Below the pieces are notes generated by a model that worked only from the letters and a program-made list of their open reading frames with translations, had not been told where the DNA came from and ran no database searches. Of a stretch of DNA of 30,702 nt, positions 5,374 to 27,048 are shown in pieces. The DNA is from an uncultured archaeon (GTDB lineage: Archaea; Iainarchaeota; Iainarchaeia; Iainarchaeales; GCA-2688035). Position 1 is the stretch's first letter. Each line of letters opens with the position of its first letter. A program made the translations under genes and the position numbers. The stretch lies in the NCBI GenBank assembly GCA_964354805.1, contig CAYHBD010000002.1, positions 1 through 30,702 on the forward strand, written 5' to 3'.

Positions 5374-7191
5374 TTGTGCGGAATTGTTGCATTCAAAGGA
5401 GATAAAGGCGCTGTCCAGCTTGTGCTGTCTGGATTAAAGCAGCTTGAATACAGGGGCTATGACAGCTGGGGCATTGCATCTCTTGCCAATGGAAAAATAG
5501 CCTGCGAGAAAAGCGTTGGCAGAATCGGGCAAATGGAAAAAGTCAAGCTTCCTGAAAGTGGCATTGCGATAGGGCATACAAGATGGGCAACACATGGGGC
5601 AGTAACAGAGCAGAATGCTCATCCACATTTTGATTGCGGCAAAAAGATTGCAATAGTGCACAATGGAATAATCGAGAATTTCTCTGCCCTGAAAGAGCAG
5701 CTGCTTGCAAAAGGCCACTGCTTTAGGAGCGAAACAGACAGCGAAGTGATTGCGCATTTGATTGAAGAGGAAAGGAAAAATTGCGGCAATTTCAGCAATG
5801 CTGTTGCAAAAGCGCTTTCGCAATTGCATGGGAGCTTTGCTATTGCGGCAATTGATTCTGATTCAAAAGAAATTGTTGGAGCAAGGAAAAACAGCCCTCT
5901 TGTTGTTGGTTTTGCAGATGGCGCATTCTTCCTTGCAAGCGATGTAACCGCTTTCCTGCAGCATACTAGGAAAGCCGCTTTTCTTCTGGATAATGAAATG
6001 GTTTTGCTTAATAAGGGCGCAACCTTCATAGACCTTGGCTCAAGCCAGCCTGTTCGGAAAAAGATTGAATCAATTGAATGGCAGCAGGATGCTGCAAGCA
6101 AAGGCTGCTTTGAGCACTTTATGCTGAAGGAAATCTTTGAGCAGCCTGACAGGTGCAGGGCAACAATGCATGGCAGGCTGATGCAGGCTGGAATAAAACT
6201 GCCGGAGCTGCTTCCTGTGATTGAAAAGGCTGCCGAATTCAACAGAATTATTTTTGTCGGCTGCGGAACTGCTTTTCATGCAGGAATGGTTGCAGAGTAC
6301 ATTTTTGAGGAATTGTGCAAAATCCCTGTGGCAACACAATATGCTTCAGAATTCAGGTACAGGCAGCCGGTAATTGATGAAAAAACCCTTGTTATTGCAA
6401 TAAGCCAGAGCGGTGAAACAGCCGACACTCTTGCTGCAGTAAGGGAAGCAAAGGCAAGGAAAGCAACAGTTCTTTCAATAATCAATGTTGTTGGCTCAAC
6501 AATTGCAAGGGAATCGGATTTCGTTTTTTACATAAATGCAGGCCCTGAGATAGGGGTTGCCTCGACAAAGGCATTCACCTGCCAGCTGGCTGCGCTTTCA
6601 ATGATTGCAATAGCATTCGCCCGGAAACTGAAAAGCGCTGAAAAAAACAATCTGGCTGAATTGGCTGTTTCATTGAAAAAGTTGCCAGTGCAGATTGAAG
6701 AGGTTCTGCAGGAAAGCAAACACATTGAAGAAATTGCAAACAGGTTTTCTGAGAAACGAAACGCCTTGTTTTTGGGCAGGGGAGTAAATTACCCGATTGC
6801 ATTGGAGGGCGCTTTGAAGCTGAAGGAGATTAGCTATGTGCATGCAGAGGCAATGCCTGCAGCAGAAATGAAGCACGGCCCTATTGCCTTGATCGACAAG
6901 GAAATGCCTGTTGTTTTCATTGCACCAAATGACAAAAGCTATGAAAAGATTCTGGGCAATATTGAGGAAGTGAAAGCAAGGCATGGGAAAGTGATTGCGA
7001 TTGCAAACAACGGAAACAGCAAATTGCAGGAAATGGTTGATGAAACAATTTTCGTTCCCAAAACGCATGAATTGCTGCAGCCAATTCTGAACATTGTTCC
7101 CTTGCAGCTGTTCGCATACCACGTTGCCAGGCTGCGCGGCTGTGACATTGACAAGCCCAAGAATCTGGCAAAGAGCGTAACGGTTGAATGA
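5374..7191 (+). CDS. glmS: Glutamine--fructose-6-phosphate aminotransferase
   Basis: (M)CGIV N-terminus from TTG 5374, LEYRGYDS, GHTRWATHG, SQSGETADT, ALKLKEISY, KNLAKSVTVE C-terminus. Confidence 0.97.
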   Translation: MCGIVAFKGDKGAVQLVLSGLKQLEYRGYDSWGIASLANGKIACEKSVGRIGQMEKVKLPESGIAIGHTRWATHGAVTEQNAHPHFDCGKKIAIVHNGIIENFSALKEQLLAKGHCFRSETDSEVIAHLIEEERKNCGNFSNAVAKALSQLHGSFAIAAIDSDSKEIVGARKNSPLVVGFADGAFFLASDVTAFLQHTRKAAFLLDNEMVLLNKGATFIDLGSSQPVRKKIESIEWQQDAASKGCFEHFMLKEIFEQPDRCRATMHGRLMQAGIKLPELLPVIEKAAEFNRIIFVGCGTAFHAGMVAEYIFEELCKIPVATQYASEFRYRQPVIDEKTLVIAISQSGETADTLAAVREAKARKATVLSIINVVGSTIARESDFVFYINAGPEIGVASTKAFTCQLAALSMIAIAFARKLKSAEKNNLAELAVSLKKLPVQIEEVLQESKHIEEIANRFSEKRNALFLGRGVNYPIALEGALKLKEISYVHAEAMPAAEMKHGPIALIDKEMPVVFIAPNDKSYEKILGNIEEVKARHGKVIAIANNGNSKLQEMVDETIFVPKTHELLQPILNIVPLQLFAYHVARLRGCDIDKPKNLAKSVTVE

Positions 7192-7245
7192 ATATGGCAG
7201 GCAGGAAATCTTGCAAAGAGCGTAACGGTGGAGTGAATATGGAAG
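7162..7245 (+). repeat. 45-nt-period tandem duplication of the glmS 3' end
   Basis: 7162-7200 vs 7207-7245; both encode NLAKSVTVE*, with differences CTG/CTT, GTT/GTG, GAA/GAG. Confidence 0.92.
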
Positions 7246-7691
7246 ATGATGTTGTTTTCAGGGAGGCAAAGCACAGCGATTTGCACAATCTGCTTAGCCT
7301 GCTGCACCAGCTTAGTCCGCCGAAGGATGCAGAGAAAAGCCCTTCTCATGATGAGCTGCTGCCTATTCTGGATAAAATAATCAAGGATGAGAACCACTTT
7401 ATTTTTGTTCTGGAAAAAGAGGGCAGGCTGCTTGGGACAGCAACCCTTTTGCTGCAGATGAATTTGTCCCATGCAGGCAGGCCTTATGCCCACATTGAGA
7501 ATGTTGTCATTGACGAAAAGCACAGGGGCAAGGGCGTTGGAAAAAAGATCCTCGGGCATCTGGTTGAAAAGGCAAAAGAGAGAAATTGCTACAAAATCAT
7601 TCTGCACTGCAAAAAGGACAGCATTCTGCCTTTCTACAAAAAATGCGGCCTGCAGGAAACAGGCGAAGTGGAAATGCGATTTGATTTATAA
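7239..7691 (+). CDS. GNAT acetyltransferase, glucosamine-6-phosphate N-acetyltransferase (GNA1)-like
   Basis: TATLLLQMNLSH..AHIENVVIDEKHRGKGVGK..NCYKIILHC..FYKKCG resembles GNA1; directly after glmS; start could alternatively be 7188/7194. Confidence 0.8.
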   Translation: MEDDVVFREAKHSDLHNLLSLLHQLSPPKDAEKSPSHDELLPILDKIIKDENHFIFVLEKEGRLLGTATLLLQMNLSHAGRPYAHIENVVIDEKHRGKGVGKKILGHLVEKAKERNCYKIILHCKKDSILPFYKKCGLQETGEVEMRFDL

Positions 7692-7709
7692 CCGGTCAGT
7701 GAGTTTGCT

Positions 7710-7787
7710 ATGACAAATATTAAAGCGGTTTTTTTGATAGCCTGGGTGTGAAAGGGAATGGCAGATATTAGAGCGATTTTTTTTGAT
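7710..7787 (+). repeat. 48-nt-period duplication of the HAD gene 5' end
   Basis: 7710 ATGACAAATATTAAAGCGGTTTTTTTGAT (MTNIKAVF, one T short) vs 7758 ATGGCAGATATTAGAGCGATTTTTTTTGAT (MADIRAIFFD). Confidence 0.8.
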
Positions 7788-26239: not shown

Positions 26240-26310
26240 AACCTGCTGAACGGCAATGGCGCCGCCTTCCCCGCGTATGTCTTGCCACCGTCCTCCGGCC
26301 TGGCTTTTTT
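26184..26310 (+). repeat. Repeat family C, copy 1 (CPBP 3' end + downstream)
   Basis: About 125-nt imperfect direct repeat with 26919-27048. Confidence 0.9.
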
Positions 26311-26429
26311 TTTGAACCATTTTCCCGGCTTGTGCTGTTGCCGTGGGTTTGGTGGGGAATGTGGGTGGTTTGGGGTGTGATGGGGGAAAAGTGCTTAAAT
26401 GGGTTTGGGGTAAATGCTTTGGTGATTGT

Positions 26430-26903
26430 ATGCCTGATTTGAGCAAGTTTAGTTTTGGGGCGACCTCTGCCATAATTACCAGCCTGGCGTTGATTGCCGG
26501 GCTTGGCACGGCGTCAAACAATAAACTGGGCATAATCGGGGCTTTGCTCGTCATTGCGGTTGCTGACAACATTGCGGACTCCCTGGGCATCCACGTATAC
26601 CGGGAATCACAGGGCATAACGCTGCAGAGCAAAATAAAATTTTATACAATAACCAACTTTATCGCAAGGCTTGCAATAACACTAATATTCATCTCATTCA
26701 TTATACTCTTGCAGATGAATTACGCAATAATCCTCTCGGTAGCATTTGGGCTAATCATACTCTCGGCAATGAGCTATTTCATAGCAATAAGCCAGAAAGA
26801 AGACCCGCTCATGGAAATTTTAAAGCACGCGGGATTAGCTGTCATTGTTCTGGCCATAAGCCTTTTCGTGGGCCAGATCATAAAAACACTACTCATCAGC
26901 TAA
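26430..26903 (+). CDS. VIT1/CCC1-like membrane transporter
   Basis: FSFGATSAIITSLALIAG..IAVADNIADSLGIHVYRES; GGTGA RBS before ATG 26430. Confidence 0.7.
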   Translation: MPDLSKFSFGATSAIITSLALIAGLGTASNNKLGIIGALLVIAVADNIADSLGIHVYRESQGITLQSKIKFYTITNFIARLAITLIFISFIILLQMNYAIILSVAFGLIILSAMSYFIAISQKEDPLMEILKHAGLAVIVLAISLFVGQIIKTLLIS

Positions 26904-26918
26904 CAATTCAAAAAAAAA

Positions 26919-27048
26919 TGTTTCCCGATTATGCCGCCCACGCAACACTCAATTTATTGCCCCCAATTTTATAGAACCTGCCGAACAGCAACGGCAACCG
27001 CCTTCTCCAGCGTATGTTTTCGCCACCGGCCTCCGGCCTGGCGTTTTT
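26919..27048 (+). repeat. Repeat family C, copy 2 (ghost CPBP C-terminus)
   Basis: Encodes FPDYAAHATLNLLPPIL* vs FPAYVAHATFNLLPLIL*; shared downstream sequence. Confidence 0.9.

Follow-up and report, generated by a model that had tools for sequence, protein, structure and literature searches.

Why should the end of a gene be found twice, once in the gene itself and once more, shortened and slightly altered, in the DNA just beyond it? The question is raised by a contig of 30,702 nucleotides (nt) from an uncultured archaeon (GenBank CAYHBD010000002.1), analysed here over its entire length and called the window; it is contig C2 of a genome (G000) of 1.38 Mb in 49 contigs, with 44% GC. An earlier note on this DNA had reported five such duplicate termini, or ghosts—at the 3' end of glmS, the 5' end of a HAD-CofD gene and the 3' ends of an ABC transporter ATPase gene, a nucleotidyltransferase (NTase) gene and a CPBP gene—with a triplicated helicase start as a possible sixth. 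All five pairs are present, and the phenomenon recurs through the genome: ghosts lie at gene borders, they are derived, and some of them are allele-like. The explanation that we favour, at a probability of about 0.5, is that they mark imprecise joints between diverged alleles at gene borders, similar to those left by homology-facilitated illegitimate recombination (HFIR), with true slippage repeats (NTase, helicase) mixed in.

The Pfam content of the window is archaeal in look (HerA, S_layer_C and HVO_ domains) and a tRNA with a probable intron is encoded in it; in a search with its GNAT protein the nearest named relative was 'Candidatus Diapherotrites archaeon', so that the host is a DPANN archaeon. 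The nearest genomes compared, G001 and G012, belong to a sister genus and share 68-69% nucleotide identity. Polarity and mosaicism were established with L011 and L012, two JGI contigs that share 85-92% identity with the window; contigs of relatives from two sequencing runs, X2 and X5, were also compared with it, parts left uncovered being uninformative.

At glmS, on the forward strand, the real 3' end (7162-7200) consists of the last nine codons, the stop (7189-7191) and 9 nt, ATATGGCAG, which look like a dead GNAT start. After a spacer of 6 nt (7201-7206) that resembles neither flank, the ghost (7207-7245) codes for an unchanged peptide, NLAKSVTVE, and has retained the stop (7234-7236). The period is 45, and over the nine codons and the stop there are three differences, all at synonymous third positions. 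The copied piece extends over TGAATATGG and thus takes in the GNAT start; the ghost continues directly into the real GNAT gene (ATG 7239). Its codons are those of the relatives (GAG in 6/6, CTT in three), and it is the real end that carries unique synonymous changes. A likeness of the dead start to the GNAT start of G001 was considered; it is weak and too short for use. The GNAT open reading frame (ORF) is also open upstream, across the spacer and the ghost (7188-7238, with ATGs at 7188 and 7194), and gene callers may therefore add a false N-terminal extension of 17 residues. The GNATs of relatives measure 150 aa, and the protein search gave no relative above 91% identity and no N-terminally extended form.

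On the other side of the GNAT gene, again on the forward strand, the ghost of the HAD-CofD 5' end (7710-7738) shows 3 amino-acid changes and the loss of 1 nt in a T run. It is followed by a new leader of 19 nt (7739-7757), unlike the spacer of L011 and L012 and found in neither of them, and then by the real 5' end (7758-7787), which is 32/34 identical to L012. The period is 48 and, besides the lost T, four changes fall at first or second codon positions. The ghost itself follows the ancestral GNAT-HAD spacer, 16/20 identical to both L011 and L012. As both of these contigs have single-copy glmS/GNAT and GNAT/HAD junctions, the two duplications are derived. The GNAT segment has the 7-nt motif ATGGCAG at each of its two outer joints (7194, 7758). 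When glmS and GNAT are followed in 100-nt windows, identity among the window, L011 and L012 ranges from 74% to 98% and the closest pair switches repeatedly, which indicates that short tracts from diverged lineages are common there; no breakpoint of this mosaic is assignable to any particular ghost.

At the ABC ATPase gene, on the reverse strand, the two copies are far apart. The real 3' end (15179-15263) and the ghost (14239-14324; 25 codons, the stop and about 10 nt further) are 939 nt apart and 87% identical; 7/9 differences are at third positions, and both copies have an open frame and a kept stop. The ghost retains the Trp of the family (AWG), found in 8/8 closest relatives, and the real end has replaced it by a derived Phe. 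Between the two lies an ORF of 245 aa on the forward strand (14419-15156, 'gene Y'); another of 195 aa on the reverse strand (13606-14193, 'gene Z') separates the ghost from the permease gene, and neither has a Pfam match. Gene Z is present in 1/40 relatives. A 75% copy of the element upstream of the ATPase gene (16209-16280) stands here before the permease gene (13534-13604, reverse strand). In 12/12 family relatives with an orthologous ATPase the permease starts -10 to +53 nt from the ATPase stop, and in a contig of X5 (record 31) 13453 and 15190 are joined, separated by 47 nt. The 1.72 kb found at this junction in the window, with gene Z, the copied upstream element, the ghost and the convergent gene Y, is therefore a gain.

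The CPBP locus, on the forward strand, has a similar organisation. The real 3' end with its downstream hairpin and T-run element (26176-26310; stop 26237-26239) and the ghost with the same element and a kept stop (26911-27048) are 735 nt apart and 86% identical. An ORF of 157 aa lies trapped between them (26430-26903, 'gene X'); it encodes a membrane protein with no Pfam match and is an extra copy, 37% identical to a family gene at C30:39080-39520 which the relatives have once. The earlier note had proposed that new genes are sometimes brought in this way, free of any integrase. The ATPase and CPBP loci do hold extra genes, and a Pfam search of the ORFs within the two inserts and around them revealed no integrase or recombinase domain. 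Homologues of genes X, Y and Z in relatives were never found beside an ATPase or a CPBP gene, and no donor arrangement was seen. As to whether ghosts are the functional ends of relatives, the codons of the glmS ghost and the Trp of the ATPase ghost match them; CPBP was not found in the 22 family relatives searched.

The NTase tail and the helicase start are of another kind. The first is a contiguous tandem duplication of 44 nt (22086-22129 and 22130-22173, forward strand). Its first copy is translated and ends in TGA at 22134-22136, and the second retains the old stop (22169-22171); the period puts the copy out of frame, and the peptide KLKT[KR]PFK[IV]KAK is kept. The motif AA[AG]C[TA]G opens both units and recurs right after the second. 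The ORF of the PIF1-WYL helicase does carry three tandem units at its 5' end, of 36 nt and in frame (18644-18751, forward strand). Both are contiguous slippage-type or microhomology duplications, and the helicase repeat is not a ghost.

The window is not exceptional in its genome. We compared the last or first 12 residues of each protein with the 150 nt beyond the gene, shuffled partners serving as the control, and found ghosts at 66/1231 3' ends and 24/1209 5' ends against 5 and 1 in the controls, that is at about 90 gene ends, or about 5-7% of genes. When all offsets from 12 to 3000 were scanned, imperfect near-tandem pairs likewise proved to be in strong excess; their periods are about 40-65 nt and most of them lie at gene borders. 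The density of pair clusters per 100 kb is 7.5 in G000, 1.7-3.1 in three other genomes of the same taxonomic order, 4.4 in G001 and 14 in G012. Another genome, G006, has a ghost of its own (L103, on G006:C56) just downstream of the orthologue of the G000 gene at C9:108355-108909: ARQIDREFGIETEE* against QRQIGLEFGIEPEE*, with 38/45 nt identical, about 51 nt downstream. The tail of this gene was duplicated independently in two genera. Several near-tandem matches away from gene ends are explained by an abundant palindromic intergenic motif (…CCCAAGGCTTTTTTGC…GCAAAAAAGGCTT…) present on many contigs, e.g. at C8:3916-4003, C7:9933-9967 and C33:29075-29107.

Are the ghosts, then, decaying duplicates or the ends of diverged alleles? 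According to the earlier note the copies differ mostly at synonymous positions, which neutral decay would not predict, and came from diverged functional alleles. The first of these statements is true of glmS and roughly true, by codon position, of the ATPase and the NTase; it is false for HAD and CPBP. Pooled over 30 loci detected at the DNA level, the differences amount to 29 synonymous and 46 non-synonymous codons (synonymous share 0.39, third-position share 0.44). The loci are nevertheless heterogeneous: the synonymous/non-synonymous split is over-dispersed (P=0.005), and three loci are almost purely synonymous, with 5 or more synonymous codon differences and no more than 1 non-synonymous; among 57 detections, decay at any single age would yield 0.22 such loci at the most. 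Some ghosts, then, are not decayed slippage copies and have to stem from alleles diverged in a functional state. The ghosts of HAD and CPBP show no synonymous bias, and the NTase and helicase repeats are of the slippage type.

Other features of the pairs also speak against slippage followed by plain decay. The stop at the aligned codon is kept in 24/24 scored ghosts for 76-83% expected, a result that an A/T mutation bias could weaken. Similarity ends 0-1 nt past the stop in 9/28 loci and within 3 nt in 13/28, a position singled out by nothing except coding constraint acting on the two copies. At least 10 nt separate the two cores in 50/68 pairs, and these spacers are unrelated to the flanks (match 0.369, compared with 0.31-0.345 in control registers); similarity reaches or exceeds the period in about 13/68 pairs. 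We also considered that the spacers were templated from elsewhere in the genome, and rejected it: the exact 14-mers shared are mostly the common intergenic hairpin motif or A/T-rich runs.

Several observations weigh against the allelic reading. A simulated neutral ghost beside a constrained gene gives shares of 0.33-0.35 and 0.43, which match the pooled ones, so that the claim that decay cannot produce the pattern fails. The HAD ghost is frameshifted, the CPBP ghost differs from the real end by 5 non-synonymous and only 1 synonymous codons, and the polarised changes of the ATPase pair (2-4 on the real end, 5 on the ghost) fit either model. Gene junctions of G012 and G001 carry perfect contiguous arrays of 29-75 nt, and a slippage process of like size thus acts in the family. 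Finally, a tandem duplication followed by an allelic tract overwriting one copy would give a similar product, except for the unrelated spacers.

These points lead to a rival explanation in which every ghost arose as a microhomology or slippage tandem duplication, survived at a gene border, the only place where it disrupted nothing, and then decayed, the allele-like ones having been overwritten by later homologous tracts. The contiguous NTase and helicase repeats, the multi-copy arrays of the sister genus and the valS-type locus at C9:120679, whose spacer is homologous to upstream coding DNA, all agree with it, as does the report that tandem duplications mediated by microhomology (MTDs) occur universally and are depleted in coding DNA (PMC13167724). 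We regard it as possible but doubtful, since the spacers are unrelated over about 90% of their length, the similarity stops at the stop codon, 24/24 ghosts have their stop, three loci are purely synonymous and perfect copies are almost absent from G000. Loss of the flap endonuclease was considered as a cause of the duplications and discarded: Fen1 (PF00867) is present in G000 and in 36/40 relatives, which leaves no obvious cause of a raised MTD rate. For the two long-range pairs, ATPase and CPBP, the direct repeats of 86 and 138 nt that flank the inserted genes, their longest identical runs of 23-26 nt and the CPBP repeat's equal divergence in its coding and its non-coding part (about 86% identity) would suit a Campbell-type single crossover of a small circle bearing a diverged gene end, or an insertion that duplicated its target in place, neither of them involving end joining. 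This appears improbable: neither an integrase nor a replication gene turned up within the inserts or next to them, the homologues of genes Y and X in relatives have other neighbours, and the short tandem class would be left unexplained.

It might also be that ghosts are retained for a function, as a terminator, an element of translational coupling or an alternative protein end; the invariable conservation of the stop and the proximity of some ghosts to hairpin and T-run elements could be invoked. We give very little credit to this, given that close relatives lack the ghosts, that the sequences are gene-specific with no common motif, that most copies fold no better than shuffles and that some ghosts are frameshifted. 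Nearly as remote is an artefact of assembly, the contig ends of two co-occurring strains having been pasted head to tail, even if allele-like copies at gene borders would be expected from it too and none of the public runs searched for the source population matched (best word share 0.14). Two independent pairs of contig ends (C6/C13 and C13/C10) share exactly 141 nt, and further exact overlaps measure 109 nt (C9/C47), 63 nt (C28/C16) and 32 nt (C2/C7). The default largest k of MEGAHIT is 141, and the overlaps point to a de Bruijn assembly at this k, without scaffolding or polishing. A tandem pair spans 90-130 nt and lies inside one k-mer, so the pasting of two contig ends should be impossible in such a graph. 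The assembly holds no N and the contamination of the bin is 0.37%. Moreover, a contig of X2, from another study, runs to 7787 and then back to 7743 with four other letters between, the same HAD architecture as in the window (copy, 4 nt, TGGGTG...), and ghosts are found in the genomes of other laboratories as well. The ghosts are thus real, heritable scars and not assembly pastes. The 32 nt at the right end of the window are shared with the reverse complement of a C7 end, and C7 may be its neighbour.

Returning to imprecise joints between diverged alleles, the ghosts could have formed as follows. The population would exchange short tracts with lineages whose divergence reaches about 25%. A tract beginning in a conserved gene would lose homology at the gene border, where the intergenic DNA of the alleles cannot pair, and the unpaired end might be sealed illegitimately, out of register by a few dozen bases. 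The product would be the real gene end, a short flank of the incoming allele and then the last or first 20-45 nt of the resident allele. If the incoming piece were larger than the gene, an extra gene could be trapped between the real end and the ghost, as would have happened with gene Y (ATPase locus) and gene X (CPBP locus). Long overlaps would recombine away, and short, already diverged ghosts would persist. The homologous anchor, the illegitimate joint and the side that was incoming are all deduced from the scars. Contiguous duplications by slippage or microhomology would occur too and would probably be short-lived; perfect repeats probably collapse fast while diverged ones persist, which would explain why the repeats of G000 are mostly of the diverged kind.

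Put more broadly, allelic exchange in this DPANN lineage would routinely end at gene borders by non-homologous joining, leaving ghost termini at about 5-7% of genes and allowing genes to enter, integrase-free, beside conserved genes, to the point of splitting an ABC transporter operon. We advance this general form tentatively, at somewhat less than even odds. If it were true, ghost termini would be markers mapping both the ends of recombination tracts and gene capture in uncultured archaea, accessory genes would be shown to enter a tiny archaeal genome without the enzymes of mobile elements, and gene flow in uncultured DPANN archaea would be measurable from sequence alone. In annotation, gene callers can be misled by the starts and stops of ghosts (GNAT ORF extensible from 7239 back to 7188; NTase tail), and the intergenic 'spacers' of G000 are partly dead gene ends.

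Some neighbouring features deserve mention. In G012 and G001, perfect arrays of 3 to 4 copies, with units of 29-63 nt, occur at L055:82-194, L041:1409-1499 and L053:3454-3535 and 9246-9323; their units hold ribosome-binding sites and start codons, or stop/start overlaps (TGAATATG), and they are young junction duplications of the sister genus. Within the window there are four small intergenic repeat families, 75-95% identical: 13534-13604 and 16209-16280; 22186-22227 and 24149-24189; 26262-26311, 26998-27048 and 28161-28210; 17800-17867 and 25132-25199. Several have a GCTGGTGC...CGCCC core, or a hairpin and T run, and they keep one common orientation on the contig regardless of that of the neighbouring genes. 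Possible roles are those of terminators or promoters used in common, or of recombination sites bounding cassettes. Structured RNAs were considered and set aside, as Rfam gave only two tRNAs and the folds are mostly no better than shuffles.

The segment 16272-28006 reads like a variable or defence-type island, with a Schlafen/AlbA_2-HATPase_c_4 gene (16272-17621), a PolB-exonuclease-like ORF (17973-18590), the PIF1-WYL helicase (18609-20282), the HTH-DUF6036 NTase (20451-22136), Bro-N (24219-25085) and Fic (27065-28006). Contigs of relatives reorder or omit parts of it, e.g. passing from 22268 to 22650 without the ORF 22314-22631. A perfect palindrome of 22 nt (25272-25293) stands just upstream of small ORFs at 25304-25720, and a near-palindrome of 31 nt (29760-29790) directly 5' of tRNA-Trp (29791-29863). 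The other tRNA, of 126 nt (3162-3287), was found by Rfam and missed by ARAGORN, so that an intron is probably present. The HerA-like protein of 1018 aa (minus-strand ORF 9472-12528) has a long, very acidic, low-complexity N-terminal region, coded by degenerate repeats of 9-18 nt (12140-12440).

How do the ghosts compare with known systems? In the library searched, no paper joined DPANN, tandem duplication and intergenic. The icd gene of E. coli, where the prophage e14 has its attachment site, offers a spare 3' end (icdC) that is synonymously diverged, lies beyond inserted DNA and is made by the site-specific integrase of the element. By contrast no integrase was found here, no recombinase gene appeared by Pfam in or beside either insert, and most ghosts hold no inserted gene at all. 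A likeness also exists with the C-terminal displacement of Rhs, contact-dependent inhibition (CDI) and type VI secretion system (T6SS) proteins, as outlined in PMC5361080 and its references: homology in the constant 5' part lets a new module in, and the former 3' part, displaced downstream, is retained as an orphan module. Those 3' modules are variable toxin ends, whereas the ghosts are 20-75 nt of ordinary housekeeping or transporter genes, of the same sequence type as the new end; the peptide of the ghost is that of the real end, or nearly so (ABC ATPase, glmS, CPBP), and toxin or immunity modules are absent.

In MTDs the two copies start out alike in every letter, and the spare one then decays neutrally. 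With arms of 4-25 nt at the borders of the unit (PMC13167724), MTDs resemble the ghosts as short head-to-tail copies depleted in coding DNA (PMC13167724; PMC8639346), and this fits the NTase, the helicase and the arrays of G012 and G001. Most ghosts differ from them: they are not head-to-tail contiguous, two cores being separated by an unrelated spacer, and they are imperfect, diverged from the outset or very early, with a similarity ending at the stop codon.

HFIR is the system that our favoured reading follows. As summed up in PMC5361080 and PMC3240628, this 'homologous recombination at the border' is described in S. pneumoniae, Acinetobacter and P. stutzeri; homology anchors the incoming DNA at one end, in a conserved gene, and the other end is attached just past that gene with no homology. 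Foreign DNA can be trapped in this way and no integrase is needed. The non-homologous joint usually lies at a few bases of microhomology, and the process depends on DNA uptake and a RecA-family recombinase. Our case differs in being read from scars only, in a DPANN archaeon without known DNA uptake, and in that a short duplicate of the resident gene end survives, while the experimental cases usually delete resident DNA. The homologous anchor, the non-homologous joint, which the unrelated spacers would suit, and the integrase-free trapping of genes would be alike; the added non-homologous DNA is alike, here the 1.72 kb with two ORFs between ATPase and permease and the extra copy that is gene X. 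Where the experiments followed one selected marker, about 90 gene ends are concerned here, genome-wide: the component mechanisms are known, and what is new is their genome-wide imprint at the ordinary gene ends of an archaeon.

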